The notes under the pieces are model-generated. The model saw nothing but the letters and a program-made list of their open reading frames with translations. It had not been told where the DNA came from and did not search any database. Both the position numbers and the translations under genes were made by a program. Below, piece after piece: positions 4,421 through 18,763 of a stretch of DNA of 20,000 nucleotides. This stretch comes from an uncultured virus (IMG/VR IMGVR_UViG_3300011242_000004) (taxonomy: Duplodnaviria > Heunggongvirae > Uroviricota > Caudoviricetes): IMG/VR virus record IMGVR_UViG_3300011242_000004; one strand, 5' to 3'. Position 1 is the stretch's first letter. Each line of letters starts with the position of its first letter.

Positions 4421-4468
4421 ATCCAATAAGCCGGAGAAACCGGATGCGGACGAAAGGGGTAATTCCTC

Positions 4469-5080
4469 ATGACAAACTCAACTAAAACAATCCTATCTAC
4501 TACTGCTGTATTCGCAACACCTGCACAAAAACGTGCAGTCGAAGAAAAACAAATCGTAACACCGGTCGAATTTGGGCCAGCTGTAAAATTCCCTTTATAC
4601 GCATTCACAGTAGAAGGGAAAGCAACTCGTGGCGCACAAGTCTTCAATAAACACCATCACTTCTGCCACGTCGGATTAGAAGATTTCAAAGCTGTTCTTC
4701 AAAAATACCGTATCAATAATGCGGTACTTGCACGGATGTTGAATGGCGTCGGCAAAACAACGGCTCGCGAAGGATATGTTTACGTATCCTATGACCAACA
4801 AATCGGATTGCCGAATCCGTATAAAAAAGCGGCGCCGTACCGTAAGGCTTGCCAAGATTACTTGAACGGTTTGCCGCTTTCGACTGTTGTTGTTTCAAGC
4901 AATAAATTGGTGCTGGAATTGGCGTCAAGACGTGGACATCGTGTTCTGCATCGCGACGTCAATTTCGCACGTGTTCATGACATCGAACACACTTGTATCT
5001 ACCGTGGTCGCAACCACAACGCAATGCCTGCTGTTATGTCTCTCTTCTTTGGTTCTAAAGTGAATCTACTTGTTTATTGA
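4469..5080 (+). CDS. Hypothetical basic protein (203 aa) upstream of the RNA polymerase
   Basis: AAAGGGGT RBS; codon usage like the downstream polymerase gene. Confidence 0.85.
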   Translation: MTNSTKTILSTTAVFATPAQKRAVEEKQIVTPVEFGPAVKFPLYAFTVEGKATRGAQVFNKHHHFCHVGLEDFKAVLQKYRINNAVLARMLNGVGKTTAREGYVYVSYDQQIGLPNPYKKAAPYRKACQDYLNGLPLSTVVVSSNKLVLELASRRGHRVLHRDVNFARVHDIEHTCIYRGRNHNAMPAVMSLFFGSKVNLLVY

Positions 5081-5179
5081 AAAACATTTTCTAAGTTCTA
5101 AAAAACTTTCGGTCTTGGCGAGGACCTTAAACTACGACATCGTGGGCGCACTTACGCAAATTGAAAGGGGTAATTAATC

Positions 5180-7975
5180 ATGACAAACGCTAAAAACAAC
5201 AACAACGGAAAACAAAACAAAAAGGGGATGAAACCTATGAAAGCATTAACAATCACTGAACTCGTCAAACAACGTAAAACTATCGTCAAGCACCAAGGTC
5301 CAAAGAAACCATCGTTCAACTTGTCAGCAACAAAATCAGTTTTCGGATTCACACACCCGATGACTGGCGCATTAACAATCTTGAATGACAAAACGCTTCA
5401 GCACTTGTTTGTCAGCGATGACATGAACAATACAAAGTTTAATCCTGCTGTCCGTTTGTTCATGGTGACGGAAGGTTCTACAAAAGTAGAAGATTTCATG
5501 GTCAATGAGAAAACATTGGTTCAGCGTAACTCTGAATCGATGCTTGTACGGGATGCCGCTAAAGTCACAACAGAATTCGACATTATCAAGAAAGACCCGC
5601 TCAACCGTAAACAGATGTTGACGGAGAAGCTTGAGGCCTTTGACAATACACGTCAGCTCAACCTTAAGGTTGCAGATGTCGTTGTCAAACTCAAGAAGTT
5701 ATTTGAATCAAAAGAAGTCAAAGCACGTTTTGGTAATATCGATGCAAAAGACATCAATCATTTCATCAAAGAAGTACTCTTGAATGGTGTCGTGAATCTT
5801 GACTTCGTGAATGGCGATTACGATGTCAAAGTATTCACATTGAATTCAGCGGCACCATCGCAAACTCGTAAGGGTGAAGCGGCTTTCTGGCAGTATGCGG
5901 AACAACGTGGTCTTGCCAACCTCAAGGATTTAATCTTTGATGACGCAAAACGTTCAATCGCTGTTTACGGTCGTTTTGTTTCAACCTACCGTATGAACGA
6001 ATACGGTAAACTCAAATTGAAGCGCGGTAAACGCATCTTCAAGATGGACAAAGAGCCAAAACGTTTGGACATGCCCGCATCAGGTTCGCGGGATTCACAG
6101 GCTTTCAAGTTCCTGTTCGGTAAAATGGTCATCGTCGACCGTTTCCTTTACACGGATGACGAGAAAGAAGCTGGTACTAATATCAAAGTCGTTAAAGAAG
6201 CGATTGTATTAGAATCTTCTTCTTTGATGATGGGTGGCGTCAAACGTCGGGTTCTTATCATTCAAGACCCGATTCGTGAAGTTGAAGCAACGGCGAAAGT
6301 CGTTGAGAAGTACAACACGGAGTCAGGTAAGCCTGAAATCGTGGAAGGGCTTTACAAGTTCCCTAAGAACTTGGTCGATGGTGGTATCTTGGTTTCTGAG
6401 GAAGTGACAGAGTTTATGGTCGCTGAAGGAAACTTGAAGCACAAAGGGCAGTCATTCCAAGGTCGTGGTGTAGCGGGTGTTAAACCATTCGCTTATGGCA
6501 CACCAATGCTTAAAGAGATGACTGGTGTAGACATGGTCTTCATGTCAGGTGCATTAAAACTCGATGTTATCCCATCATTGCTTGATGGTCGCTTCGAGTT
6601 TGCAGTCGTTCAAGGGTCACGTCTTGAGTTTGCTGAAGACATGGCACCGGTAGCAACACAGGCTTTACTTGCGGCTGGTACACCGCAAGAGAACCTTGAA
6701 TTGCTTCACATGATTGCGGCAGGTCGTATCGATGCTTCTATGTACTCAGCGTCAAAAGCTCTCAAGATTCTTGGCATCACAGAGAACTTTGACGAGGAGA
6801 CAATGAAAGTTGTCGAACAAGATGAAGAGTTCGTCGAAGAGTTAGATGGCGAAACAGGTGTGAAAGCGATTCTTCGTAAAGCACCTCACGCTATCAAAGA
6901 TGGTCTTCTCAAAGACCGTCTTATCAACATCATGGCAAAAGCCCTTGAGAAAATCAAGTTGGGCAATGTCCTTGTTGATGACGCTAAAATGCGTCACATG
7001 GGCTTTGACATCTTTATGGTTGTCAAAGCTATCGAATCATTATTTGTTCAACGCAATAAAGGCGTTGAAGTGCCACAGATGGAATGGGTGAACTCTATCC
7101 CAGCTGGTGGTGCAGTTGTTGTTGACGCTTACGGTCGTCTTCGTGCAGGATACTTCCTTGCGATTCGTTACCCAGCATTGAAGAACGAAGAAGTACGCAA
7201 AGTACTAGCGGCTGTTGAGTTTGGTTCAGAAGAAGCACGTCTTTACTACGAACGTGCGGCACAAATGGGCTTCTTCCAAGGCCTTGTGTTGTTTAACTCT
7301 GTTGACATGACGACAGAGGCAATGAGTGGTGCCGATTTTGATGGCGACACTTGCTTGGTTATCTTCAATGCTTTAATGGTTGAACCGTTTGTAAACAAAA
7401 CACCACTTCTCGATTTCTTTATCACTGAGACTGGTGCGCTCGAAGGTGGATGCCCATGGTCTGCACCGGAGGAAGCTGTTGATTTTAAAGCTCACATCAC
7501 AGCACCTGAGGGTCTTGAATTCACGCAAGTGATGGAAAACAACTCTCGTACGTGGGCACTTGAGTTCGACGAAGAAGACGTCAAAAACCGTCCAGCAGAC
7601 GTTTACTATGTCTTCAACCGTGCAGGAGCATTGCACATCGCTGAGACAGCGAAGATTTCTTCAATCGGAACATGGACAAACCGTCTTATGAACGTTGAAG
7701 ATATCCAACTCGAAATCATCGGTGAAATCGGACTTGCACGTCAGCTTCAAGACCGTGCGAAATTCGTTTCTCTTTCGAACGAGTTGGCGTTCTACGATGA
7801 TTTAGCAATGTGGTTAACATGTATCGTTCGTTGGGCAATCGACGAAGCGAAACATGGTGGAGCGTTCAACGGACCACTTGCTCATATCGTCAACATCTTC
7901 GAAGATGCAACATCTCCAACGAAGATGCGTGAAGACCTTGAGAAACATGTCTTCAAAATGGGTCGTATGTTCTAA
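5180..7975 (+). CDS. YonO-like / eukaryotic-RdRP-related two-barrel RNA polymerase, catalytic polypeptide (931 aa)
   Basis: Motifs in the order expected for the cellular RdRP/YonO family: DGGILVS (aa ~400), QGRGVAGVKP (~427), RYP (~663), catalytic SGADFDGD (DFDGD at nt 7334-7348, aa ~719), AIDEAKHG (~886). AAAGGGGT RBS. Confidence 0.88.
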   Translation: MTNAKNNNNGKQNKKGMKPMKALTITELVKQRKTIVKHQGPKKPSFNLSATKSVFGFTHPMTGALTILNDKTLQHLFVSDDMNNTKFNPAVRLFMVTEGSTKVEDFMVNEKTLVQRNSESMLVRDAAKVTTEFDIIKKDPLNRKQMLTEKLEAFDNTRQLNLKVADVVVKLKKLFESKEVKARFGNIDAKDINHFIKEVLLNGVVNLDFVNGDYDVKVFTLNSAAPSQTRKGEAAFWQYAEQRGLANLKDLIFDDAKRSIAVYGRFVSTYRMNEYGKLKLKRGKRIFKMDKEPKRLDMPASGSRDSQAFKFLFGKMVIVDRFLYTDDEKEAGTNIKVVKEAIVLESSSLMMGGVKRRVLIIQDPIREVEATAKVVEKYNTESGKPEIVEGLYKFPKNLVDGGILVSEEVTEFMVAEGNLKHKGQSFQGRGVAGVKPFAYGTPMLKEMTGVDMVFMSGALKLDVIPSLLDGRFEFAVVQGSRLEFAEDMAPVATQALLAAGTPQENLELLHMIAAGRIDASMYSASKALKILGITENFDEETMKVVEQDEEFVEELDGETGVKAILRKAPHAIKDGLLKDRLINIMAKALEKIKLGNVLVDDAKMRHMGFDIFMVVKAIESLFVQRNKGVEVPQMEWVNSIPAGGAVVVDAYGRLRAGYFLAIRYPALKNEEVRKVLAAVEFGSEEARLYYERAAQMGFFQGLVLFNSVDMTTEAMSGADFDGDTCLVIFNALMVEPFVNKTPLLDFFITETGALEGGCPWSAPEEAVDFKAHITAPEGLEFTQVMENNSRTWALEFDEEDVKNRPADVYYVFNRAGALHIAETAKISSIGTWTNRLMNVEDIQLEIIGEIGLARQLQDRAKFVSLSNELAFYDDLAMWLTCIVRWAIDEAKHGGAFNGPLAHIVNIFEDATSPTKMREDLEKHVFKMGRMF

Positions 7976-8000
7976 GAATTAAATCGTAACAGCGAATGTT

Positions 8001-8025
8001 GAGGGGTGAGATGCCCTCTTTTTTT
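8001..8025 (+). terminator. Putative intrinsic terminator
   Basis: GAGGG-N8-CCCTC hairpin followed by T7. Confidence 0.6.
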
Positions 8026-8100
8026 ATGGATTGTTTTACTGCCAATAGGACGGAAAATACCGTATGAGGCCCTGCACATGCAGGAGAATAGGGGAAAATC

Positions 8101-10071
8101 ATGTCTAACACTACTAACACTGCTATCTACAACGTCGCTACAGAAGCTGAAATCGCAAATTCTGTCGGCTTGCCAGAAATGTCAATGGAAGAAGCACGCT
8201 CATTGGCAATCAACGTCTTAAACAGCTCAATGGTGTTGGTTTCATCACAGGAAGCACGTAAGTTTGTCATGGCAGATAAAGAATCTGCACTTAAGCAAGT
8301 AGTTCTTCTCACGCAACAAAAGCTTCGTCTCAAATTCGGACCAAAGATGGACTTCTTCCACGGCGAAGTGGAAAAGGATATTGAATGGTTCCGTGCAACA
8401 GCTGACGAGTTGATTGCAAAAGGTGAGTTGCGTCTCATTCAAGATGTTGATTCTGACATCTTCATGTGGACTGAGAAAGCCCACAAGTTCACGTTCCAAA
8501 TCTTCAAAGGGAAACGTTTCCGTACGTCTCAGTTGATTGTCAAACTTCAGAATGAAGTCACTTTCCGTGATGTTCACAATGAAGCACTTGCTCGTGCAGA
8601 AGCACATGAGACACAGTACAAAAGCAATAAAATGCCGTTGCAACGTCCGGCTTATATTGCGGCTCAAAAAGGAGAAGAAGGTGTTCGTGTTGCACATCGT
8701 CATTCTTCAGTGCAATTGGCAACAGACTTCGCTGGTTTCATTCTTGAAGAGTTGAAAGTCAAGAAAGCAAGTCTTAAACGTTCAATGAACATGTTGAATG
8801 ATTTCATTGCTTTGAAAGACCGTTTTGAAATCTCTGACGATGAGCGTGCACGCTTGTCAGCAGAAGCTAGCACGTTGCTTTCTACTGCTAAAGTAGGGCT
8901 TGATGAAATTCAGTTGGAACGTGACAGCTATAATGAACGTGCACAAATCTTCATGGGTATGAAAACTGTCCATGATACGCATGACTTCAAAGTATTTGTG
9001 GCCAACGAGAAAGCGGCTGGTCGCAAAGTCAACATGGACAAAGCAAAACAACACTTTGCTCTTCCAGTTGGGAAAGTGCTTTGGAAACAAGCGACAGAGG
9101 GGATGCGCAACTCTGCTCGTCGTAAAGCGATGACAACGGCTGAGCTTGACCGTCTTGCTGAGATGAATCTATCTTATACGCAAGAAATGAAAGCACAGAC
9201 GCTTCAAACTGCTCAGAAACTTGAGAAAGAGTTGAAGATGTCAAATGCAACGATGAAATTGGCTATCATTGCCTATATCGATGCATACAACGCTGATAAA
9301 GAAGGTTTGGGCGGTCTCGCTTCAATGTGGGATACGTTCGAAGAAGGATTGTTGATGGCATTGGACGCAATGGCTACTCAAGGCCCTCTCGTTGAGTACA
9401 AACCATCTTCAGCAGAATTGTCGTTCTTCTTTGAACCTGCCATGAACGATATTACGACTATTGAGAAAGCGCATGCTGAATTAACAGCAATGAAAGTTCT
9501 CAACAAAGACGTTAATATCGTTACTGTTGATGGCGAAGTCGGCCTTCAACTTGATGCTGGTTTCTTCCCACTTGAAAAGCAAGAAAAGAAACTCAAGTGG
9601 TTGCCAGCAGGTCGTGACTATGTAGCAAAAGTAACACGCTACAAAAACACGGTCAAAACAGGGATTGCGATGGGGCTCTCAGATATCCGTGCCATCAATG
9701 TGCCTGAAGAAGAAGTGCAAGAAGCAGTCGTCGACCAAGTTGTCGATGGTTACACTGCTGATGCGGATTACGATTGGGCGCAAGAGCCAGCGCCTGATTA
9801 TATCGATGGTCTTTTCTTCGATAACTACGAAGAAGAAACTGTTGAAGCACCACAGCCTGTTGTTCTTGCTCCAACGGAAATCATCGTTGCGACGTTAGAA
9901 CGTAATACTGTTGAAGCTGTTCTTTCTCAACAGTATGAAATGGCAGTATCACCGCTTGGTACGCAAGTCTTCATGCTTCATAACGGACAGCGTATCTTGT
10001 CGTTCACGACGGATGTTCAATTGTCTTCGCTTGACGGTATGCGTCACGATGGCACGAACTTCGTCATCTGA
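8101..10071 (+). CDS. Large protein (656 aa), probable second (C-terminal) subunit of the split RNA polymerase
   Basis: AGGGG RBS. RPAYIAAQKG...HSSVQL (~182), AIIAYIDAY (~388) and SMWDTFEEGLL (~408) resemble the C-terminal motifs of RdRP/YonO enzymes. Acidic C-terminal linker. CDS is certain; function is inferred. Confidence 0.6.
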   Translation: MSNTTNTAIYNVATEAEIANSVGLPEMSMEEARSLAINVLNSSMVLVSSQEARKFVMADKESALKQVVLLTQQKLRLKFGPKMDFFHGEVEKDIEWFRATADELIAKGELRLIQDVDSDIFMWTEKAHKFTFQIFKGKRFRTSQLIVKLQNEVTFRDVHNEALARAEAHETQYKSNKMPLQRPAYIAAQKGEEGVRVAHRHSSVQLATDFAGFILEELKVKKASLKRSMNMLNDFIALKDRFEISDDERARLSAEASTLLSTAKVGLDEIQLERDSYNERAQIFMGMKTVHDTHDFKVFVANEKAAGRKVNMDKAKQHFALPVGKVLWKQATEGMRNSARRKAMTTAELDRLAEMNLSYTQEMKAQTLQTAQKLEKELKMSNATMKLAIIAYIDAYNADKEGLGGLASMWDTFEEGLLMALDAMATQGPLVEYKPSSAELSFFFEPAMNDITTIEKAHAELTAMKVLNKDVNIVTVDGEVGLQLDAGFFPLEKQEKKLKWLPAGRDYVAKVTRYKNTVKTGIAMGLSDIRAINVPEEEVQEAVVDQVVDGYTADADYDWAQEPAPDYIDGLFFDNYEEETVEAPQPVVLAPTEIIVATLERNTVEAVLSQQYEMAVSPLGTQVFMLHNGQRILSFTTDVQLSSLDGMRHDGTNFVI

Positions 10072-10077
10072 TTTAGG

Positions 10078-10106
10078 AAGGCCCTCTTCGGAGGGTCTTT
10101 TGTTTT
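10078..10106 (+). terminator. Intrinsic terminator
   Basis: AAGGCCCTC-TTCG-GAGGGTCTT followed by TTGTTTT. Confidence 0.8.
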
Positions 10107-10149
10107 GTTGTCTGTCACTCAATCCACATACAAAAAGGAGATTATTAAA

Positions 10150-11295
10150 ATGAAAATCCAAAACAAAGTAGCTCGTTATATCAACAACGTCAATGCAACT
10201 AACACTTCAGTCCAAATCAACAAAATGGTGAAGGCCATTGCATTGGCAGAGCGTGAGTTGGAACAAGCACGTCAAATGTTTGCCGATTTCACGGCACCAA
10301 CTCCACCGGCTCCAAAGAAATCCATTGTTCATTCTTCTAAAGGAACAATGACAACACAGTCTGAAGTTCATGCGCTTCTCATGGACACAGATAAAACAGT
10401 TGTAGCCGTTAAAGAAGCAGTCAAAGAAGAACCTGTGTACAAAGGTTTGGATTTGACACCGGCTCCAGCTACTCCTGAACCAACGGAGTACAAAGGCTTA
10501 GATTTATCCGCTCCAACTCCTGAGCCTGAGTATAAAGGACTTGATTTAACACCGGCTCCTAAACCAGCACCATTGGCGAAGGAAGTCCGGGAGAACATGG
10601 CAAAACCAGCACCAAAACCTGTACAACAGCCAGTCAATTCGAAGGCTGGTTTCTTGTCAGGCCCTGCTGAGTCTTCCAACGTGTTGAACAGTGCTATGCC
10701 AAGTCATAAGCACGACACGCTTAAATACGTCGAGAAGCTGAAGAAGTTTATCTTCTCTGGCATCATGAAACTTGCAGAAGCAGGGATTCGTGAGATTCGT
10801 GTCGCTGAGTTCTATGGCGTCGAATTGTTGACAGCGCTCGTCTGGCCTAGCGTGCTTGCGAAGTGTCCAGACATGGAGCTCATTCTCTATACAAATGAGA
10901 ATAAGAGCTTCAAGCAATACAAGACGGAAGAGTACGAGGCGACGTTCAAGATTCATTCGCCATACCGTCTGCAACAAGACTTGCGTCGACTGGCTAATAA
11001 AGTCGTTAAAGTCGAAGGCAATGCCTTTGCAGTACGCCGTGCTGTAGCAAAAGATACAGCCGGTTATGTGCGTATCTCTCCATTTGGTTTGGAGGATATC
11101 ACGACATCGTTATTCAGCAACAAGACGCTACGGGTGAACATTTGCCCATGGACGCTTGCTGTTGAAGTCGGTGGTGATTTACCTGCCCTCTCTCTTGCGG
11201 GAGATGGTGGGGATTACCGTCCACGCCAAATGGTAGCGGACGAAAAGTTGTTAGCGGCGGACACGTCAGACTATAAGGGCCTGACTCTTTCATAA
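10150..11295 (+). CDS. Hypothetical protein (381 aa) with Pro-rich linker and repeated YKGLDL motifs
   Basis: AAAGGAG RBS before ATG 10150; YKGLDL three times plus terminal YKGLTLS. Confidence 0.85.
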   Translation: MKIQNKVARYINNVNATNTSVQINKMVKAIALAERELEQARQMFADFTAPTPPAPKKSIVHSSKGTMTTQSEVHALLMDTDKTVVAVKEAVKEEPVYKGLDLTPAPATPEPTEYKGLDLSAPTPEPEYKGLDLTPAPKPAPLAKEVRENMAKPAPKPVQQPVNSKAGFLSGPAESSNVLNSAMPSHKHDTLKYVEKLKKFIFSGIMKLAEAGIREIRVAEFYGVELLTALVWPSVLAKCPDMELILYTNENKSFKQYKTEEYEATFKIHSPYRLQQDLRRLANKVVKVEGNAFAVRRAVAKDTAGYVRISPFGLEDITTSLFSNKTLRVNICPWTLAVEVGGDLPALSLAGDGGDYRPRQMVADEKLLAADTSDYKGLTLS

Positions 11296-11358
11296 GAGCC
11301 GGGCTTTTGCTTAACGTTGGCTATCAGGCCTTCGGCTAGGGGTTTTAACCCCTTACAA

Positions 11359-11380
11359 CCGGAGGCTTCCAGCCTTCTCT
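11359..11380 (+). promoter_or_regulatory. Degenerate copy of the hairpin motif, embedded in a longer stem-loop (11319-11374)
   Basis: CCGGAGGCTTCCAGCCTTCTCT; lacks the TGATT element. Confidence 0.4.
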
Positions 11381-11409
11381 TGCGGTATCACTACTAGAAA
11401 GGAGTGACG

Positions 11410-11646
11410 ATGATGTCACGAGAATTTATTGTTTCTTTGTTACGCTTAGTATTACCGTACCCATTACACTGGTACGAAAGTAAGTCCTTGCACCAATTGA
11501 ACGGAATCTACACGGAATACCGGGGAGCCATTTCCCGGAAACGTGTACAGTTGGCATTTGAAGCCGATGACCGCCGTTTAAAAGAAAAACTGAAGAAAAC
11601 ACCATTCGTTCCTCCGAAAGAGGACAATGGGTTGCCCTTCTTTTAG
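11410..11646 (+). CDS. Small hypothetical protein (78 aa) ending EDNGLPFF
   Basis: AAAGGAG RBS, ATG 11410. Confidence 0.8.
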   Translation: MMSREFIVSLLRLVLPYPLHWYESKSLHQLNGIYTEYRGAISRKRVQLAFEADDRRLKEKLKKTPFVPPKEDNGLPFF

Positions 11647-11666
11647 GGCAAGTTCAAAAACAAAGG

Positions 11667-11696
11667 GCGGAGGACTCCGTCCTTCTTTTGTTGATT
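11667..11696 (+). promoter_or_regulatory. Repeated hairpin motif copy 1 (putative phage RNAP promoter/terminator)
   Basis: GCGGAGGACTCCGTCCTTCTTTTGTTGATT; TGATT starts 25 nt after the first G. Confidence 0.7.
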
Positions 11697-12060
11697 CAAT
11701 GAGGGGAACTTGATTCCAACCAACAGCTCAACTGGTCCTTCGGGATAGAGCCTTCACACCTCATTGAATTGCACCAACATGCAGGTGAAGGTTCTCGCTT
11801 TCCCCCTACTGTCCAGTGGGGGGTTGCGTCATGAGAGCGGTGAACACTTCCGTCTTTGGACATATCCAGCGCTACCCTGATGGGTTCTGGAGAAAAGACG
11901 GTCGTATTACTTCCTACTTGGTAGGAGCACGACATCAGGTCTCCTTTTTGTCCTACCGGATAGGGGATTCGTATTCTATGCGTCGCACAGGGGTGTGCAA
12001 AGTCATAGATAGTAGGTGTTATGTAGCGCGGAGGCTTACCCAACCTCCGGCACATAGCAA
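11694..12060 (+). ncRNA. Putative ~370-nt structured non-coding RNA, family not recognised
   Basis: Perfect 11-bp stem 11694-11704/11759-11769 is crossed by an 11-bp stem 11747-11757/11785-11795 (pseudoknot). Also a cUUCGg hairpin and at least six further consecutive stems. No RBS-supported ORF. Confidence 0.7.
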
Positions 12061-12075
12061 ATACATAGTTAGAAG

Positions 12076-12106
12076 GCGGAGGCCTCCGGGCCTTCTTCTC
12101 TTGATT
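12076..12106 (+). promoter_or_regulatory. Repeated hairpin motif copy 2
   Basis: GCGGAGGCCTCCGGGCCTTCTTCTCTTGATT (spacing 26). Confidence 0.7.
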
Positions 12107-12132
12107 CTATTACATGCAAAGGGGAGATTGAC

Positions 12133-12411
12133 ATGAAAGAAATGAAACTCACGCAATTGGACGAAAGTAAAGCACGTAAGCTTTTACCTGAAGAAATAGC
12201 GGAACTCGATAACGCTGTTGAGAATCATCAAACGATATCGGAACTCAAAGTCATGCATTCGAATGCTGGGTATTATCTAGGGCATACGATTGACCAAGAA
12301 ATTGATGGTCAAGTATTTGAAATGCCTTGGGACCGCGTGACCGACTACTATAAAACGAAAGAAAAAGCGGAGCAAGCGCTTCGGTTCGAACAACTGCATC
12401 AACAAGACTAA
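12133..12411 (+). CDS. Hypothetical phage protein (92 aa)
   Basis: AAAGGGGAG RBS; motif SNAGYYLG...PWDRVTDYY. Confidence 0.85.
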   Translation: MKEMKLTQLDESKARKLLPEEIAELDNAVENHQTISELKVMHSNAGYYLGHTIDQEIDGQVFEMPWDRVTDYYKTKEKAEQALRFEQLHQQD

Positions 12412-12413
12412 AA

Positions 12414-12444
12414 GCGGAGGGCTCCGGCCCTTCTTTCTTTGATT
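12414..12444 (+). promoter_or_regulatory. Repeated hairpin motif copy 3
   Basis: GCGGAGGGCTCCGGCCCTTCTTTCTTTGATT (spacing 26). Confidence 0.7.
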
Positions 12445-12473
12445 ACAACTTTATATGAAAAGGAGCGATTCAC

Positions 12474-12803
12474 ATGTATGAACAAATTGAACGGGAAGTC
12501 GAAATGGACAAATTCTTCCGTCGGGGGAAATACTCAACGAACGTTAACCCGGCGACTGGTGAATTCATCGAGCAACCAGTACTTTCAGCGGATAAGCCTC
12601 ACCGCTGTCATGTCATCAAACGGCTATGCCCGAAAATGACGATGAACACGGATATGGCTACCATCACGCAAGATGTGAAGTTGGCTTATCAAGGAAAACA
12701 GTTTTGGCATACGATTGAACTTGAGACATGTAAACGGGAAGATGTTGCTCGTGTGTATCAACAACATGCTCAACGTTGGCGCCTAGAGGAGGAAAGCAAA
12801 TGA
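12474..12803 (+). CDS. Hypothetical protein (109 aa)
   Basis: AAAGGAG RBS. Confidence 0.8.
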   Translation: MYEQIEREVEMDKFFRRGKYSTNVNPATGEFIEQPVLSADKPHRCHVIKRLCPKMTMNTDMATITQDVKLAYQGKQFWHTIELETCKREDVARVYQQHAQRWRLEEESK

Positions 12804-12979
12804 ACGACCAATTGCTTTTCTTCATGATGGCATCCATGTATCTCGTCTTTTGTGCGTACGTTGTTGGTATCGCGTATATCGCGCGGTACCTTCTGCTTCG
12901 TAATCATTTCAAGTTAGCCTTCTCTAGTTTCTTCGTCGGTGTCGGCGGTCTTATCTTCGTTTTAAATACATTATTCTAA
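12800..12979 (+). CDS. Small membrane protein (59 aa, two hydrophobic segments)
   Basis: GGAGG RBS; ATGA overlap with the previous stop. Confidence 0.75.
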   Translation: MNDQLLFFMMASMYLVFCAYVVGIAYIARYLLLRNHFKLAFSSFFVGVGGLIFVLNTLF

Positions 12980-12990
12980 GGGAGCGATTC

Positions 12991-13179
12991 ATGATGAAAA
13001 AGGTTGGTAAAGTATTACTTAAAGGTGCGATTCTCTATACGTTTGCGATGTATGTCGCCGCCATTAACATCGTCGCTGAAAAACGGAAGACCGACGCTCA
13101 GATTGATAAGCTCACGAAACAATACGAAGCAAGCCAAGCTGGTTTTAAAAAGACACTTAAACAATTGGGGGCTATCTAA
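12991..13179 (+). CDS. Small membrane-anchored protein (62 aa)
   Basis: AAGGGAG RBS; N-terminal hydrophobic helix. Confidence 0.75.
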   Translation: MMKKVGKVLLKGAILYTFAMYVAAINIVAEKRKTDAQIDKLTKQYEASQAGFKKTLKQLGAI

Positions 13180-13454
13180 TGAAATACTTTGATATGCATT
13201 ATAGTATTATTGTAGACCGTCCGCTCGTTGCTGTTTTGCTTAAAAATGGTCAGCGCGGGGTATTCGTTAATAACAATATCTCGTGCATTAACGACTTCGA
13301 TTTCGAGAAGCGTGTCCTCAGCCGTCGTTCGATTGCCGGGAACGTCGATACACGCTACAAGTCTCTTGATGAGGCCGTCGCGGAATATAATGAATCATGT
13401 ATTGAAAGCAAACGTATCATTTCATTCGATATCCTAGAGGAGGCAACAGCATGA
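13179..13454 (+). CDS. Hypothetical protein (91 aa)
   Basis: TAATG coupling with the previous gene; GGGGG RBS. Confidence 0.75.
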   Translation: MKYFDMHYSIIVDRPLVAVLLKNGQRGVFVNNNISCINDFDFEKRVLSRRSIAGNVDTRYKSLDEAVAEYNESCIESKRIISFDILEEATA

Positions 13455-13738
13455 ACACTATCATCCAACCTACTACTACGATTAAACCTCTCCGTCATGA
13501 AGATACGACGGAGACACGCAACTATATCAACATCTATAAAGATGGTGTCCTCTATGAGGGCATCACCGCGATTCGTCAAACGTCTTTTGATAATAATGGA
13601 CATCGTCTTTATGAAGTCTCAGTTGACCCGGAGAAAAAGGTCTTTTACAAACTTCCGTATAGCTTCGATATTCCCTATGAGTTCGAAGGCAAGGACTTAA
13701 ACATGATGATTACGCACGCACGGTTTAAACAACACTGA
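13451..13738 (+). CDS. Hypothetical protein (95 aa)
   Basis: GAGGAGG RBS; ATGA overlap. Confidence 0.8.
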   Translation: MNTIIQPTTTIKPLRHEDTTETRNYINIYKDGVLYEGITAIRQTSFDNNGHRLYEVSVDPEKKVFYKLPYSFDIPYEFEGKDLNMMITHARFKQH

Positions 13739-13762
13739 GGGCCTTCGGGCTCTCTTTTTTTT
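13737..13762 (+). terminator. Intrinsic terminator
   Basis: GAGGGCC-TTCG-GGCTCTC followed by T8. Confidence 0.8.
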
Positions 13763-13813
13763 ATGGACACACATCTCCAGTGGGAACACACATTCAGAAG
13801 GGAGACATATCCA

Positions 13814-14014
13814 ATGTCTACAGTCAGTCTTATTGCCAACCTCATTATTTTTCTCTCCACCCTCTACACCTTATTCTTTTATATTCGTGCCCGTCGGGTT
13901 GTATCAACACATGGAGAAACAGATGCGCGCGTTCGCACTCTCCGTGAAACCAAGAACTACTTCATGATTTGTATCTCTTATTCTGTATTAGTCATTGTGC
14001 TTCAGTTCTTTTAA
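13814..14014 (+). CDS. Small membrane protein (66 aa)
   Basis: AAGGGAG RBS before ATG 13814; two hydrophobic segments. Confidence 0.7.
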   Translation: MSTVSLIANLIIFLSTLYTLFFYIRARRVVSTHGETDARVRTLRETKNYFMICISYSVLVIVLQFF

Positions 14015-14024
14015 AAGATAAAAG

Positions 14025-14054
14025 GCGGAGGCCTCCGGCCCTCTTTTCATGATT
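14025..14054 (+). promoter_or_regulatory. Repeated hairpin motif copy 4
   Basis: GCGGAGGCCTCCGGCCCTCTTTTCATGATT (spacing 25). Confidence 0.7.
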
Positions 14055-14098
14055 CTCAGCGTCTGTAGCCATTCACCTTATAGAAAGGAAGATTATCC

Positions 14099-14404
14099 AT
14101 GGAAGAACAAATCTACGCCTATCAGCACATCCTTAGACACACATCCAAGTTCGATGAAATCACTGTCGGGTTAGCCTCTGTCGTCAACGGACTCGTCAAT
14201 GACCTCATTGCCAAGAATCAGGACTTCATTCGTATGAACAGTGAACAGCGGTTGTATTCAGCTATTGCCAAAGCTCGTATCTTAGAAATGCAATTGGCAT
14301 ACACGATTGATTACAGTCATACGCCGTTGCTTCCAGAGATTCTTCCGCTCGACCCTATCAAGGTCAATGCGCTACAGGAAGAATACGAAGCCCAGTTCCA
14401 ATAA
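14099..14404 (+). CDS. Hypothetical protein (101 aa)
   Basis: AAAGGAAG RBS. Confidence 0.8.
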   Translation: MEEQIYAYQHILRHTSKFDEITVGLASVVNGLVNDLIAKNQDFIRMNSEQRLYSAIAKARILEMQLAYTIDYSHTPLLPEILPLDPIKVNALQEEYEAQFQ

Positions 14405-14445
14405 GAGCCTTCCGGCTCTTACATACCTTAAAGGAGGAGATACTA

Positions 14446-14844
14446 ATGAATGCTTCAAACCGTCTGTTTCATTTAGCACAAGATGCTCTCACCAAACAAA
14501 AAGTCAGCGAGAGAGCCTACTCGATTGCACAAGACTTCATCAAACAAGCAGAGTGGTATGCAAGTAGAGGAGATGACAGTACCGCCTTTATTTGTGACGA
14601 AGAACAGAACTTCAGTGGCTCTCTAACTGAAATTAAAGAGTTGTTGTCTGAAGTCCGAAAAGTTCTTTCCAACGAAGGATTCAAGACGACTTCCTACATG
14701 CACCCTTCTATTATGCAACCGGTCTTGCGAATACATTGGGCGCAACCGAAAGAAAACAGTACATTCGTTATACATGCGGAAACTAAAGATGGAGTAGAAG
14801 CCATCCACCATATGCTTAAGTTTTTACCTGAACTAATCAACTAA
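14446..14844 (+). CDS. Hypothetical protein (132 aa), paralog of the next gene
   Basis: AGGAGG RBS; shares LAQ(D/E)A and L(R/H)I(H/N)WA.P motifs with 14861..15220. Confidence 0.85.
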   Translation: MNASNRLFHLAQDALTKQKVSERAYSIAQDFIKQAEWYASRGDDSTAFICDEEQNFSGSLTEIKELLSEVRKVLSNEGFKTTSYMHPSIMQPVLRIHWAQPKENSTFVIHAETKDGVEAIHHMLKFLPELIN

Positions 14845-14860
14845 ACAGGAGGAGATACTA

Positions 14861-15220
14861 ATGAAAAACGCACAGATGATGTACAAACTCGCGCAGGAAG
14901 CGAAAGCAGAAGAAAAACGGGCAGAGGTCATCAACGCCATCACATTCAAAATCGGTGATATCATCCAAAGCCACGCGAAGAAAGGATTCACGGACATCCG
15001 CATCTCCACAGACAACATGGGCTTTAACCACGACTTCATGTTGAACATGAACAACGTCCACGAACTCATGGCTCATATCAGACAGTTCGGATACGAGGTC
15101 CGTCTTCTGTTGATGGCAGACACCAACGAAATGATTCTTCACATCAACTGGGCTCCGAACCCATTCGAAGAAATGCGTAGAAACTTCGGCAATCCACTTG
15201 ACCTAGACCCTCATTATTAA
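14861..15220 (+). CDS. Hypothetical protein (119 aa), paralog of the previous gene
   Basis: AGGAGG RBS; identical 19-nt initiation region to the previous gene. Confidence 0.85.
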   Translation: MKNAQMMYKLAQEAKAEEKRAEVINAITFKIGDIIQSHAKKGFTDIRISTDNMGFNHDFMLNMNNVHELMAHIRQFGYEVRLLLMADTNEMILHINWAPNPFEEMRRNFGNPLDLDPHY

Positions 15221-15229
15221 AACCGAAGA

Positions 15230-15259
15230 GCGGAGGGCTCCGCCCCTCTTCTCTTGATT
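15230..15259 (+). promoter_or_regulatory. Repeated hairpin motif copy 5
   Basis: GCGGAGGGCTCCGCCCCTCTTCTCTTGATT (spacing 25). Confidence 0.7.
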
Positions 15260-15277
15260 ATGAAAGGAGTGATAGCT

Positions 15278-15778
15278 TTGAAAATTGGTGTCATCGGCAT
15301 GCGTATGCGGAAACACCATCCGTACTATAACCGCAACAGTCCGAAGCTTGATGAAATTTGGAAGTGGCAGGAACAGCACTTGAAAGTCTTAGCGAAAGAA
15401 GGGCATACCTTCTTAATCGGGTGTGCCGACCATTGGGACGCCCGTGCCATGAAATGGTTGTACTACAACGGTCACGCCGACCAGATTCAATTGATTCTTC
15501 CGTTCCCGGGCTTTGGCTCGAAACAAGGGAAGGATTGGCGCACCGTCCGGGAACAACTCGAACACAGAGGACAAGCCACGTATGTCCATCAACAAAGTAC
15601 GTCCGATGAATATCAAATGCTCAACCAACGCAATCGTACCCTTATCAAGGAAAGCGATTGGGTGCTATGGCTATGGGACGGCACACAGACCGACGCCTAT
15701 AGTCATTTAATCTTGAACAAGAAACCGGGCTACTTCTTCCCATGGAAGGAATACGCCCAAAGCCATCAAACGGTTTAA
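15278..15778 (+). CDS. SLOG-superfamily protein (YspA/DUF1273-like)
   Basis: AAAGGAG RBS, TTG start. KIGVIGMR, GCADHWDARA, LILPFPG and RNRTLIKESDWVLWLWDG follow the DUF1273/YspA motif order. Confidence 0.7.
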   Translation: MKIGVIGMRMRKHHPYYNRNSPKLDEIWKWQEQHLKVLAKEGHTFLIGCADHWDARAMKWLYYNGHADQIQLILPFPGFGSKQGKDWRTVREQLEHRGQATYVHQQSTSDEYQMLNQRNRTLIKESDWVLWLWDGTQTDAYSHLILNKKPGYFFPWKEYAQSHQTV

Positions 15779-15828
15779 GCTTACTCATCGTCCATAACTC
15801 AATCATATACTAAAAGGAGACTACTACT

Positions 15829-16197
15829 ATGACTACATCTATTAAACACTTTAACTTCGAGGATACTATGACAATTGAAGGGCAAGGCGTCGTCATCGGC
15901 GCAACCCCTGCTGTCCTCTCTAAAATCAAGGAGTTCGGTCTAAGCGTCTATGAAATCGTAGCGGACTTACAACTCACTGCACCGGAAGCGTTCGACCTTC
16001 CGAACATGACGAACTATGCGGTTATGAATCCGTTCATGGATACGTGCATCCTCGCTAAAGTCTATAGCGACGGCGACAACATCTGCATTGACGCCTTCGA
16101 TGTACGGAACCATATCCCATACGGAAACGTTCGCAATGACGGCACGCAAGGGTATCGCTTAGGCGCTATCCAGAAAGTCTTCACTGTGGTGCAATGA
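15829..16197 (+). CDS. Hypothetical protein (122 aa)
   Basis: AAAGGAG RBS. Confidence 0.85.
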   Translation: MTTSIKHFNFEDTMTIEGQGVVIGATPAVLSKIKEFGLSVYEIVADLQLTAPEAFDLPNMTNYAVMNPFMDTCILAKVYSDGDNICIDAFDVRNHIPYGNVRNDGTQGYRLGAIQKVFTVVQ

Positions 16198-16301
16198 TGA
16201 AACGTAGACATCCGCATTACCACGATATCATGGAAGATATCAGTATCGCCGTCGGCTTATTGTCGATGGCATACTTTACCTTATCGTTCGCATTCCATTA
16301 A
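16194..16301 (+). CDS. Putative 35-aa hydrophobic peptide (not in the ORF track)
   Basis: ATGA overlap with the previous stop; MMKRRHPHYHDIMEDISIAVGLLSMAYFTLSFAFH; fills the gap up to the next motif. Confidence 0.5.
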   Translation: MMKRRHPHYHDIMEDISIAVGLLSMAYFTLSFAFH

Positions 16302-16311
16302 AAACCAAAAA

Positions 16312-16336
16312 GCGGAGGGCTCCGCCCCTCTTCTTA
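16312..16336 (+). promoter_or_regulatory. Repeated hairpin motif copy 6 (no TGATT)
   Basis: GCGGAGGGCTCCGCCCCTCTTCTTA. Confidence 0.6.
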
Positions 16337-16373
16337 TAGGGCTTACTACTTGAATTCAGAGAGGAAGATATCC

Positions 16374-16934
16374 ATGCAATTAAACACATTTGTCCAAGAA
16401 TACTATCAGAACCCAAAAGAGAAGCCACTATTGAAACGTGTCGGTGGCATGCTCCCGGTATCAAAGAACGTCTTCAATGACGAAATCATGCATCAGAAAG
16501 TCGATACCGCCGTCAACGCCATCCACATCCAACAGATTGCTTCCCACTTAGGGATTGAACTGGAAGATGTTCAGCATGCCGCTGTCGAAGTATGTGGCAT
16601 GAAACAAGAAGCGCGTCTGTTCGAGAAGAAAGTCCAAGACTTTGACGCTCGTGAGAATGCGTATATGAACGGTTCTGTCTTAGAGAAGGCACGCCGTTGG
16701 ATTGGTTCTGACCCAGTCGACCCACGCTCTACGGTCAAAGGCGAACAGCAACCTATCATCAATATCCAATTGCCGGAGGAACTCGTCGGCGGAGGCAATC
16801 TCCAAGAACGTGTTCAACGCAATGAACAGGCTATGCAAGAACTCTCGACACAGATGGCTTCTTTACTATCTGCTCTTGAGTCTCAGTTCCAAGCGAAACA
16901 AGCAGAAGCGGAAACTTCTGAAATCAAAGCGTAA
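16374..16934 (+). CDS. Hypothetical protein (186 aa) with C-terminal coiled coil
   Basis: AGAGGAAG RBS before ATG 16374. Confidence 0.85.
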   Translation: MQLNTFVQEYYQNPKEKPLLKRVGGMLPVSKNVFNDEIMHQKVDTAVNAIHIQQIASHLGIELEDVQHAAVEVCGMKQEARLFEKKVQDFDARENAYMNGSVLEKARRWIGSDPVDPRSTVKGEQQPIINIQLPEELVGGGNLQERVQRNEQAMQELSTQMASLLSALESQFQAKQAEAETSEIKA

Positions 16935-16986
16935 GGTTTGCGGGGAGTCTAAGCCCGCTCCCCTTACATATAAGGAGGCCATCCCC

Positions 16987-17172
16987 ATGGCATCAGATGA
17001 ACTAGAACTCGTCAAATCATTCTTGTATCTTATCGGCTTATGTATCATCGCCTTAGGCGCATTGTTCTTGAAAATTGCTCACATCGATAGACGCGTAGTC
17101 GACCACTCTCTGCTATGGGGTGGCGTCATGGCCATCGGTATCATCTTTATTTACAAAGTCAGTCAAATGTAG
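16987..17172 (+). CDS. Small membrane protein (61 aa)
   Basis: AAGGAGG RBS, ATG 16987; two TM-like segments. Confidence 0.8.
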   Translation: MASDELELVKSFLYLIGLCIIALGALFLKIAHIDRRVVDHSLLWGGVMAIGIIFIYKVSQM

Positions 17173-17183
17173 GAGGAAACCTC

Positions 17184-17399
17184 ATGTCCATCTTAGCTGT
17201 CATACTTGTTACATTCTATTTCATCATTCTTTTGAACATGTGGCGCCTGACCTTCAGAGCCTTCAGTAAATGGTGGCGCGTCCGTCACTCGAAAGATAAA
17301 GTCAAACGTTCTTATGCCTTCGATAACTTCTTTCAAGGCATTTGCTTAACAATCTTTGCGACGTTCATGTTTAGCGTCATTGTCTACGAAAACCTTTAA
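17184..17399 (+). CDS. Small membrane protein (71 aa)
   Basis: AGGAGG RBS, ATG 17184; two TM-like segments. Confidence 0.8.
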   Translation: MSILAVILVTFYFIILLNMWRLTFRAFSKWWRVRHSKDKVKRSYAFDNFFQGICLTIFATFMFSVIVYENL

Positions 17400-17401
17400 A
17401 A

Positions 17402-17431
17402 GCGGAGGCGTCCCGCCTTCTTTTCTTGATT
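17402..17431 (+). promoter_or_regulatory. Repeated hairpin motif copy 7
   Basis: GCGGAGGCGTCCCGCCTTCTTTTCTTGATT (spacing 25). Confidence 0.7.
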
Positions 17432-17452
17432 ACTAACAAGGAGGAATGGATT

Positions 17453-17791
17453 ATGCATAAAACACTGAAAGAAGAACATCGCCGGGTAAAGACTCTCCTT
17501 TGGAACAACATCGTGAGTCGTATCAACACCGCTTCAGCCGAAGACTTCACGAAACGTAACACCATCATGGAAGTCAAAGAGTTCTCACTCATGAATGACA
17601 TCAACAACGAATTGCTTGCGGAAGGGAAACCTTCTTTAGGCATGGGCTATGGTGGCACCATGGAAATCAAATGCAACCTTCGTATCCTACGGAATGCCGT
17701 CCCTGATGCCTATCCGATGATGAAGGAGCATACGTACAAAGAACTGTTAGAAGCGCTTCGCCAGCAGGAAGAGAGCATGCAAGAGTTTTAA
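17453..17791 (+). CDS. Hypothetical protein (112 aa)
   Basis: AAGGAGG RBS, ATG 17453. Confidence 0.8.
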   Translation: MHKTLKEEHRRVKTLLWNNIVSRINTASAEDFTKRNTIMEVKEFSLMNDINNELLAEGKPSLGMGYGGTMEIKCNLRILRNAVPDAYPMMKEHTYKELLEALRQQEESMQEF

Positions 17792-17800
17792 ACCTTAAAG

Positions 17801-17830
17801 GCGGAGGCTTCCAGCCTTCTTTTAATGATT
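17801..17830 (+). promoter_or_regulatory. Repeated hairpin motif copy 8
   Basis: GCGGAGGCTTCCAGCCTTCTTTTAATGATT (spacing 25). Confidence 0.7.
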
Positions 17831-17833
17831 AAA

Positions 17834-17895
17834 TGCCGAAACGTCGAGAGACGTCATCTACGGGTAACCCTCCGTAGGTCTGATGATGGCAGGGT
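17834..17895 (+). ncRNA. Type II hammerhead ribozyme
   Basis: Stem II TGCC(17834-37)/GGCA(17888-91); GAAA 17838-41; stem III CGTC-GAGA-GACG; GTC cleavage triplet ending 17855; stem I ATCTACGG/CCGTAGGT; core CTGATGA 17880-86 plus one extra U; loop I ACCC can pair with downstream GGGT (17892-95). Confidence 0.88.
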
Positions 17896-17914
17896 AAGGT
17901 CAAAAACCTTAAAA

Positions 17915-17944
17915 GCGGAGGCTTCCAGCCTTCTTCTGTTGATT
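17915..17944 (+). promoter_or_regulatory. Repeated hairpin motif copy 9
   Basis: GCGGAGGCTTCCAGCCTTCTTCTGTTGATT (spacing 25). Confidence 0.7.
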
Positions 17945-18027
17945 CAGAGGACACTCTATCCTTTCTAGGCATAGGTGAGTCCAATGGGTACAAAATTGTC
18001 CACGCGACGTTAAAAGGAGGAATTATC

Positions 18028-18633
18028 ATGCAACAACAACAAGTCCAAGGTCTCGTACTCGATGACGCATCACTCGAACAATCTCGTGGTCCCCGCTGGT
18101 ACCTCGAAGACCAAAATTCGACGGCGGAAGCTTCGAACGCTAAATTGGGTATCGAGAACATCGTCCTGACGAAAGCGACGACGCAAGCTCAAATTGACGC
18201 GGGTGCCATCGGTCAAGTCGCTCTTCACACGACAATCGGTTCATTCTACATGACTGCTTTCCGTGGAAAGAAAGACCCGGGTTCTGTCCGTCTTGCTTTG
18301 CCTACTCGTCAGTACATCGACAAAGACGGCGTTAAGCAAAATCAGGAACAGTACTCGTTGCGTTCGGCTGTTCGTGCCCAAATCCTGAAATTCGTTCACT
18401 CGAAATGTAAGGAAGCGCAAGTCGCACAACAAGCCCCTGCTGGTCACGCTCAAGCAGAAGCGAATCCGGCTCTTGCCGCACTTGCTGGTCTTGACGCGGA
18501 AACAATCGCCAAACTCGTTGCTCTCTTGGGAGCTTCGGGTGGTGCGGGTGCTCAAGCTCAAGCTCAACCACAAGCTCAGGCTCAAGCTGACGTTTCTTCT
18601 GTTCCACCAATCATCACTGAAGGCGCATTCTAA
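18028..18633 (+). CDS. Putative nucleic-acid-binding protein (SpoVG-like core, Ala/Gln-rich tail)
   Basis: AAAGGAGG RBS. RLALPTRQYIDKDG...RAQILKFV resembles the SpoVG pattern (vAMPSrk..dG...R..I). Low-complexity tail. Function is tentative. Confidence 0.5.
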   Translation: MQQQQVQGLVLDDASLEQSRGPRWYLEDQNSTAEASNAKLGIENIVLTKATTQAQIDAGAIGQVALHTTIGSFYMTAFRGKKDPGSVRLALPTRQYIDKDGVKQNQEQYSLRSAVRAQILKFVHSKCKEAQVAQQAPAGHAQAEANPALAALAGLDAETIAKLVALLGASGGAGAQAQAQPQAQAQADVSSVPPIITEGAF

Positions 18634-18642
18634 GACCAAAGG

Positions 18643-18672
18643 GCGGAGGGCTCCGCCCTTCTCTTTTTGATT
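18643..18672 (+). promoter_or_regulatory. Repeated hairpin motif copy 10
   Basis: GCGGAGGGCTCCGCCCTTCTCTTTTTGATT (spacing 25). Confidence 0.7.
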
Positions 18673-18690
18673 ATTTATCTCAGCTTCCTC

Positions 18691-18763
18691 AACGGAGCGG
18701 GCGTTGTCTACGTGCTAGGAGTCCTTCCCCTACTCCTAATGCGTAGACAGCGTCTGCTCTGTT
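18691..18763 (+). ncRNA. Putative long-hairpin small RNA
   Basis: 32-bp stem with 25 Watson-Crick pairs, 6 G-U pairs and 1 mismatch; 9-nt loop CCTTCCCCT. Confidence 0.65.

Follow-up and report, generated by a model that had tools for sequence, protein, structure and literature searches.

The stretch of DNA analysed here (20,000 nucleotides [nt] from IMG/VR record IMGVR_UViG_3300011242_000004, an uncultured Caudoviricetes virus; hereafter the window) contains the gene for a predicted single-chain polymerase of 931 amino acids (aa) and, downstream of it, a hairpin element of 30–31 nt that is repeated between small genes and structured RNAs and may serve both as terminator and as promoter of that polymerase. 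Every long open reading frame (ORF) from position 3085 to the end of the window lies on the + strand, and the − strand carries three ORFs at the left end; the window contains no tRNAs. No DNA similarity to the window was found among 50,697 deposited phage genomes, none of the 28 scanned window ORFs exceeded a curated Pfam cut-off, and one of the 28 had a match in PHROG. The window was compared with two related IMG/VR viral contigs with flanking sequence, G001 (locus L001) and G002 (locus L002); the polymerases of the three genomes are 44–62% identical. G001 has a length of 53.7 kb at a CheckV completeness of 23%, and a 237-kb contig carries a polymerase 64% identical to the 931-aa protein; the phage genome is therefore probably larger than 200 kb, that is, jumbo-sized.

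A predicted two-barrel polymerase at the head of the region

5111–5153, + strand: 43-nt leader element just 5′ of the ribosome-binding site of the polymerase gene, identical in five of five sequences
5180–7975, + strand: predicted polymerase gene of the QDE-1/RDR2/YonO two-barrel type (931 aa, DFDGD at residues 719–723)
8001–8025, + strand: canonical terminator-like hairpin followed by T7 after the polymerase gene (terminator scan)

Residues 716–727 of the 931-aa protein are SGADFDGDTCLV (containing SGADFDGD). The DxDGD signature aligns with DYDGD of QDE-1 and DNDGD of YonO, and D719, D721, G722, and D723 are invariant in an alignment of 31 sequences. A word-indexed search yielded 12 close homologues (44–98% identity), and a HMMER search of 1.84 billion representatives yielded 78 proteins at E ≤ 0.001, 8 of which reached E ≤ 1e−30. 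The protein itself had no Pfam match at E ≤ 0.01, and no match was obtained with tblastn against 50,697 phage records. Among 22 scanned distant homologues, nine matched the RNA-dependent RNA polymerase (RdRP) family PF05183 at E ≤ 0.001, eight of them above the cut-off of 23.8 bits; one homologue matching this family (P0016) is 36% identical to the window polymerase over its full length. A profile of the 31 relatives matched QDE-1 chains across the DYDGD motif (E values between 4.9e−4 and 8.7e−4) and, weakly, the first-barrel Q-R-K region. Alignment with SPbeta YonO using hhalign resulted in a probability of 90% (E 1.7e−6, 216 columns), with DFDGD placed on DNDGD.

The AlphaFold2 model of the protein (predicted local distance difference test, pLDDT, 84.6; predicted template modelling score, pTM, 0.81) was compared with the PDB using Foldseek. 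All 21 matches at E ≤ 0.001 were QDE-1 (best E 1e−9) or plant RDR2 (best E 7e−8), with a probability of 1.00 over ∼840–930 aligned columns and a template modelling (TM) score of only 0.37–0.42; the next match was a crAss-like phage's virion polymerase (6vr4, E 1.5e−2). Searching BFVD by structure returned phage proteins named RdRP, down to E 1.5e−14. Judged by its sequence and modelled fold, the 931-aa protein is a single-chain two-barrel polymerase and a very divergent member of the QDE-1/RDR2/YonO clade, for which RNA synthesis is predicted. Fold, profile, and Pfam-positive relatives thus bear out the YonO/RdRP-like assignment made in the initial annotation.

Genome and metagenome scans for the polymerase revealed one further close locus (L004, with short flanks) and a fragment (L005), the others being distant. 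Identity over 5111–5183 is 89–92%, and the 43-nt leader element therein is far better conserved than nearby coding DNA (the polymerases of the five sequences are 44–74% identical); it possibly represents a leader RNA or operator.

A repeated hairpin element downstream of the polymerase gene

The element was found with a repeat finder, a regular expression, and a covariance model. Its census in the window, with nine strong copies (43–56 bits; coordinates begin at the GCG) and two weaker ones, all on the + strand between 11361 and 18672, is as follows:

11361–11381, + strand: degenerate first copy, CGGTAT instead of TGATT (18.8 bits); the same variant is syntenic in L001
11667–11696, + strand: copy 1, leading into the 370-nt RNA (55.9 bits)
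12076–12106, + strand: copy 2, ahead of ORF 12133–12411 (43.0 bits)
12414–12444, + strand: copy 3, ahead of ORF 12474–12803 and later genes (49.9 bits)
14025–14054, + strand: copy 4 (55.4 bits)
15230–15259, + strand: copy 5, 18 nt 5′ of a YpsA/SLOG-like gene whose TTG start is at 15278 (53.7 bits)
16302–16341, + strand: variant copy, TTATAGGG instead of TGATT (29.5 bits); syntenic in G001 and G002
17402–17431, + strand: copy 6 (55.6 bits)
17801–17830, + strand: copy 7, 3 nt 5′ of the hammerhead candidate (55.4 bits)
17915–17944, + strand: copy 8, ahead of a conserved leader and ORF 18028–18633 (54.8 bits)
18643–18672, + strand: copy 9, ahead of the long hairpin (53.1 bits)

The consensus is AAnnnnAAGA-GCGGAGG-nCC-TnC-GGCCTTC-TTTTnT-TGATT, and the distance from the GCG to the end of TGAT(T/A) is 30–31 nt in all 26 aligned copies of the three genomes. 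When the covariance model was run on both strands of 108,580 bases (the window and related loci), all 35 hits at E ≤ 1 (two of them duplicate sites from overlapping loci) were on the + strand and none on the − strand. The 7-base pair (bp) stem is paired in 89.6% of its 182 alignment cells, a value reached by none of 500 shuffles. Double-sided changes occur in 10 cells and are concentrated in two loop-adjacent pairs (C-G, G-C, A-U, U-A); altogether, three pairs show double changes and two never vary, and most copies have a loop of 3 nt. Positions G11, C12, G13, G16, G17, C25, and C26 (numbering of the first sequence), as well as TGAT, show no variation among the 26 copies. The loop triplet is constant within each genome: TCC in the window (9/9), TAC in G001 (10/10), and TTC in G002 (7/7). 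On the + strand, 19 of the 26 copies read C[TNC]G, which corresponds to C[GNA]G on the template strand. The deviating copies, too, retain their 3′ box at syntenic sites in two to three genomes: ahead of the gene at 16375 it is TTATAGGG, TTATACGG, or TTTTAGGG in the three genomes, and the first copy has CGGTAT both in the window and in L001.

Pattern searches of the whole records gave 10 forward matches in G001 and 7 in G002, with neither reverse nor control matches in either. All of these copies are downstream of the polymerase gene, in a stretch of 8.4 kb (G001) or 7 kb (G002) that starts after a trio of genes. A strict pattern was also searched in 2.9 million IMG/VR viral contigs; it is conservative, as the G002 copies do not fit it. 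It matched 20 loci, of which four, all on the G001 contig, comprise seven true hairpin copies; the other 16 are single matches without hairpin, mostly inside coding sequence. The co-occurrence of motif and polymerase is thus supported: the two occur together in both flank-bearing relatives, and the strict pattern did not detect the motif in any further contig of IMG/VR. We regard the motif as real, under constraint, and linked to this lineage.

Absence of sigma-70 promoters at the element

Sigma-70–like sites are fewer in the window than expected by chance (20, vs 31.7 ± 5.1 in shuffles), and none was predicted at any motif copy. At 13 of the 26 copies, the distance from TGATT to the start codon is 18–30 nt, and there is therefore no room for a −35/−10 promoter; a start signal within these junctions must consequently lie in the motif itself. 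The TTGATT sequence was considered as a −35 box and rejected, as the −10 box would then overlap the ribosome-binding sites or be located past them, and none of the sites predicted by the scan coincides with a motif. Scan and start-codon spacing both agree with the initial view that the motif differs from sigma-type promoters.

A possible dual terminator and promoter signal

Based on sequence and on analogy, the element may be a dual signal, consisting of an RNA-level terminator and a hairpin promoter of the phage polymerase similar to those of phage N4, within an early or middle regulatory region of the phage. As a whole, this explanation, in which the promoter role is the inferred part, has about even chances of being correct. 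In the + sense RNA, the 7-bp G+C-rich hairpin with its U-rich tail would end the upstream unit. At the DNA level, the element would present the conserved 5′ box ARRGCG, a mini-hairpin of the template strand whose loop reads C[GNA]G, a template “ruler” rich in A, and the conserved TGATT box; the polymerase would recognize the DNA hairpin and start the next unit at TGATT, probably at its G. Units bounded in this way would consist of one to five small genes or of one structured RNA. We infer each of these steps: hairpin formation in DNA, recognition by the polymerase, the start position, and termination at the element.

According to the portion of PMC4496689 available to us, N4 promoters have a 3-nt loop in which the 5′ G, the 3′ A, and the closing G:C pair are needed for extrusion, variable stem bases need only pair, four template A's act as a ruler, and the +1C is recognized. 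The element of the window shares with them the short stem (5–7 bp in promoters of the N4 type, 7 bp here), the 3-nt loop with template 5′G..A3′ closed by C:G, and the combination of fixed and covarying stem positions. It also shares the A-rich template spacer: after the GNA loop, a stretch of the template strand rich in A leads to a C that faces the G of TGATT, the putative start. GCGNAGC and GCGNNAGC have been named as unusually stable DNA mini-hairpins (PMC13037366, in the excerpt available). The two systems differ in that N4 has three promoters, whereas 9–11 copies are present here, each also resembling a terminator hairpin in RNA, and in the distance from loop centre to (putative) start, which is ∼16 nt here and 11 nt in N4. 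Moreover, the N4 enzyme, a virion RNA polymerase that uses early promoters, is T7-like and belongs to a different superfamily, whereas the local enzyme is of the two-barrel type; the resemblance is therefore one of analogy, not membership. A start at TGATT fits, without being proven by, the fact that the outer helix of the 370-nt RNA starts with GAUU of the motif and that the hammerhead candidate begins 1–3 nt past TGATT in two of the genomes.

Several observations weigh against this dual role. The element has all sequence features of an intrinsic terminator, being a G+C-rich stem-loop followed by a U-rich tract (the tract being broken by C or G), and 18 of the 26 copies begin 2–11 nt past a stop codon. 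G-T wobbles are found at pair 14–29 in 16 of the 26 copies and at pair 15–28 in 7; on the template strand, they become A-C mismatches, which leaves only four to five solid pairs there. When folded as DNA, the + strand hairpin exceeds its counterpart in stability in 20 of the 26 copies. The seven copies that do not conform to the template reading have a G:C or T:A closure or a 4-nt loop. Co-occurrence with the polymerase covers three related genomes only and may reflect shared descent, and the CTATATAGGGG array at 4279–4420 and the GACACATCC boxes could be the real promoters. Finally, YonO, the only relative that has been characterized, transcribes a long late operon from one start, with a promoter stated to be unknown in 2017 (PMC5467207, as far as the accessible part of that report goes).

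Much of this would be expected if the motifs were terminators or attenuators only, punctuating one long transcript from an upstream promoter and either being read through by the phage polymerase or blocking the host polymerase, with conservation the outcome of concerted cassette evolution. The terminator scan flagged hairpins at most copies (11663, 12078, 12416, 15232, 17404, 17803, 17917, and 18639) and showed terminator-like sites to be enriched (53 vs 17.5 ± 3.6). The G-U pairs at the base of the stem fit the RNA-sense strand, and a single long operon is what YonO makes. The strand asymmetry of hairpin stability is small (on average, −10.8 vs −9.5 kcal/mol as RNA and −5.2 vs −4.8 kcal/mol as DNA) and does not decide between the RNA and the DNA reading. 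The pattern of conservation is the reverse of unconstrained cassette homogenization: at 44–62% polymerase identity, GCG and TGAT are fixed and the loop triplet is constant per genome, whereas the upper stem varies with compensation, and it is specifically the 3′ box in which the variant copies at syntenic sites deviate. Triloops are, moreover, an uncommon feature of terminators in RNA. The ordinary terminators of the region (at 8001, 10076, and 13737) have UUCG tetraloops or longer loops, T7–8 runs, and no common flanks, and the 17 annotated stem-loops of SPbeta that were compared are all different from one another, which argues that the element is more than a generic terminator. Ten serial terminators without a promoter in between would, furthermore, starve the distal genes. 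A purely terminating role is, on balance, unlikely.

Relation to other phage transcription systems

SPbeta YonO and the 931-aa protein are both phage-encoded single-chain two-barrel polymerases with DxDGD, and YonO-like enzymes have been reported in the jumbo phages 0305phi8-36 and c-st (excerpt of PMC7824862). The YonO transcript also begins with a non-coding RNA (PMC5467207, same excerpt). YonO serves a single late operon, whereas the polymerase here heads a region with the repeated motif at every unit. A full-text literature search found no later paper defining a YonO-type promoter. In the SPbeta genome (AF020713, locus L076), positions 9154–10834 on the minus strand form a 1.68-kb gene-free stretch between yonN and yonK, the stated start of the YonO transcript; within this stretch, the RNA family DUF3800-VIII was matched at 47.5 bits (gathering score, 40.2).

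The loci of 13 distant polymerase relatives in IMG/VR were subjected to a crude hairpin screen. In L058 (12306–19465), seven perfect hairpins were found that have the loop C[TAAC]G in common (GTTA on the other strand, a GNNA loop), whose stems are unrelated, and which have no U tracts; L055 (12749–20011) contains three with the fixed loop C[ATCC]G and unrelated stems, all of these hairpins being on the polymerase strand and downstream of the gene; the remaining loci of this screen showed no repeated loop. Hairpins whose invariant loop is lineage-specific (GNA or GNNA on the template) may be the promoters of the whole clade of YonO/RdRP-like phage polymerases, convergent with N4, each doubling as an RNA terminator in the lineage studied here. 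This extension is tentative, and we consider it possible rather than probable.

Two other systems are comparable in part. In the PeSL cassettes of T4-like phages, a stereotyped stem-loop plus start signal is likewise located between small variable genes, as described in the part of PMC4122927 at hand. PeSL cassettes have a full sigma-70 promoter (−35, N17, −10) used by the host polymerase, whereas none exists at the motifs here. The order of cassette-plus-gene modules differs between relatives here, which is a further likeness to PeSL: motif-plus-gene modules are reordered between window positions 12404–16200 and L001 positions 16771–22646 (G001). For example, window 15218–15269 corresponds to L001 18047–18098, and window 15275–16169 to L001 21737–22646. 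Such reordering would be expected if the repeated element mediated module shuffling. Thermus phage P23-45 encodes gp64, a single-chain, non-virion two-barrel polymerase that uses a GC-rich motif specific to the phage and repeated in front of early genes as its promoter; gp64 belongs to a different two-barrel branch, and the available portion of PMC10770324 mentions no hairpin.

Structured RNAs of the region

11692–12075, + strand: structured non-coding RNA of ∼370 nt, the first (outer) helix of which starts with GAUU of the motif
17834–17898, + strand: type II hammerhead ribozyme candidate (Rfam Hammerhead_II, RF02276), core intact in three genomes
18691–18763, + strand: 32-bp hairpin with the C-rich 9-nt loop CCUUCCCCU (−49.0 kcal/mol)

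The 370-nt RNA has a minimum free energy of −139.2 kcal/mol (z score −4.28) and is 77.5% identical to positions 16646–17034 of L002, with seven compensatory pairs among 92 predicted; its first 200 nt are nearly invariant between the window and G002, the covariation being located elsewhere. It is absent from the syntenic place in G001. A comparison with Rfam at E ≤ 10 gave no family, the sole match being a spurious small RNA (sRNA) over the motif. A scan of IMG/VR with 17-mers yielded eight loci, of which only the G002 contig holds a true copy. The RNA is new, with only two known copies (window and G002).

The hammerhead candidate of the window scores 31.5 bits (E 0.0061) and a second one among the relatives 33.3 bits, both below the gathering score of 37; that of G001 was not reported by the Rfam scan at E ≤ 1 and was recognized by alignment only. 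In all three genomes, the core elements CUGAUGA, GAAA, and GUC-A are present and stem II is open, and changes in stem III keep the pairing. Compared with Rfam Hammerhead_II, core and three-stem layout are the same, with an extra U between core and stem II in the window and G001. In the window and in G001, the candidate starts 1–3 nt past TGATT; for G002, this distance is 20 nt. In G002, it is part of the leader of the homologue of the gene at 18028, whereas the window and G001 have a motif copy between the two.

A self-cleaving ribozyme candidate at one of the junctions is what would be expected if the element, likewise, were an RNA processing or stability signal, i.e., a hairpin that an endoribonuclease of the phage or host, or a binding protein, recognizes at the RNA level, with the result that polycistronic RNA is divided into units whose 3′ hairpins are protective. 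Recognition of an RNA hairpin by a protein fits the conservation of loop and flanks as well as the covarying stem, G-U pairs are present, and the 5′ arm includes GGAG/GGGG. Yet, the scan of 28 window ORFs yielded no nuclease candidate, and neither the fixed position of TGATT, 7–9 nt past the stem, nor the GNA reading of the template would be explained. RNA processing as the function of the element is accordingly regarded as distinctly improbable.

The long hairpin is kept in both relatives, with the loop CCUUCCCCU, or CCUACCCCU in G002, the stem of which is entirely different. Its loop (18723–18731) is complementary to the unusual AAAGGGG ribosome-binding sites at 4452–4465 and 5163–5176, a type of site common to ORF 4469 and the polymerase gene. 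C-rich-loop sRNAs of Bacillota mask ribosome-binding sites, and, from its sequence, the long hairpin RNA could mask the AAAGGGG sites.

With the 370-nt RNA, the hammerhead candidate, and the long hairpin, folding and conservation confirm the at least three non-coding RNA units that had been noticed in the initial annotation. For the accompanying idea that these RNAs are regulators or substrates of the enzyme, we found neither support nor refutation, and the same holds for the 656-aa protein as a part of the transcription system (see below).

Neighbouring genes and other conserved boxes

8101–10071, + strand: 656-aa protein, syntenic with the polymerase in relatives
10076–10111, + strand: canonical terminator-like hairpin with 11 pairs, a TTCG loop, and a T-run (terminator scan)
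10105–11295, + strand: 396-aa protein (likely start 10150) containing YKGLDL repeats, its C-terminal part being SLOG/YpsA-like
13737–13800, + strand: canonical terminator with UUCG loop and T8, followed by ACACACAT boxes; a second element class, also present in L001 and L002
18789–18853, + strand: two GACACATCCGNGATGGC boxes spaced by 48 nt, 5′ of ORF 18905–19360, conserved in three genomes

A trio of genes encoding the polymerase, a protein of 650–710 aa, and one of 390–460 aa precedes the motif stretch in G001 and G002. For the 656-aa protein, only five homologues were found, and it had no match in Pfam or PHROG and no lead in the Atlas; its AlphaFold2 model is poor (pLDDT 61.1, pTM 0.31), and a wide structure search with VIA-align returned helical-bundle matches only (Z ≤ 7.4, within the stated background). 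The C-terminal half of the 396-aa protein, the repeats of which are (E)YKGLDL, matched SLOG models in the Atlas weakly (TM 0.59–0.64 by the hit). Another YpsA/SLOG-like protein is encoded by ORF 15254–15778 (likely TTG start 15278), which scored 26.4 bits against PF06908, just under the cut-off of 27.7. The genes flanking the locus in G001 include NAMPT and a gene resembling that for phosphoribosyl pyrophosphate synthetase. In the leftward genes of the relatives, group I introns are located at L001 154–743, L002 877–1460, and L002 35–380, all on the − strand (65.7, 91.0, and 56.0 bits, respectively; gathering score, 50), and L001 701–2431 (− strand) is a 576-aa ORF with an intein bearing a LAGLIDADG domain. 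The Rfam scan detected no group I intron in the window.

The second element class takes one of two forms, either a canonical terminator with a UUCG loop and T8 followed by ACACACAT(C/T)TCC or the pair of GACACATCCGNGATGGC boxes ahead of ORF 18905; its sites in L001 are at 17530, 17961, and 20504. The sequence GACA[CT]ATCC occurs five times on the + strand of the window and not on the − strand. Upstream of ORF 4469–5080, a tandem array (4279–4420) consists of about ten 14-nt units, CTATATA(A/G)GGGG(T/C)NC. It is conserved at L001 8713–8871 and L002 9300–9486, with single similar boxes at 2033–2155 of the window, and may represent promoters of a further class or iterons to which a protein binds.

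Such boxes bear on the question of whether the motif serves a different polymerase, be it a second one of the phage or a modified one of the host, with its gene in another part of the ∼230-kb genome, while the 931-aa enzyme uses signals such as the CTATATAGGGG or GACACATCC boxes. In L002, L004, and L005, similar 14-nt boxes of the TATA type are located just 5′ of the polymerase leader, further conserved boxes exist, and about a quarter of the genome or less is visible. Opposed to this are the lack of a sigma factor or second polymerase among the scanned ORFs of the window or the flanks of G001, and the fact that, in each of the three genomes, the motif cluster directly follows the polymerase module. 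Recognition of the motif by a different polymerase is very unlikely.

Significance

The locus contains a compact, repeated, and evolutionarily constrained promoter candidate for YonO-type polymerases, and it adds a new structured RNA of 370 nt as well as a hammerhead candidate in a defined genomic setting. If invariant-loop hairpins were promoters throughout the clade, the locus would supply the promoter rule that has long been missing for this class of polymerases. If the element does act both as terminator and as promoter, hairpin promoters would have had an independent origin in a polymerase superfamily that is not related to the one of N4, and polymerase and 30-nt boundary element together would constitute a minimal orthogonal transcription unit, which may be of use for engineering.

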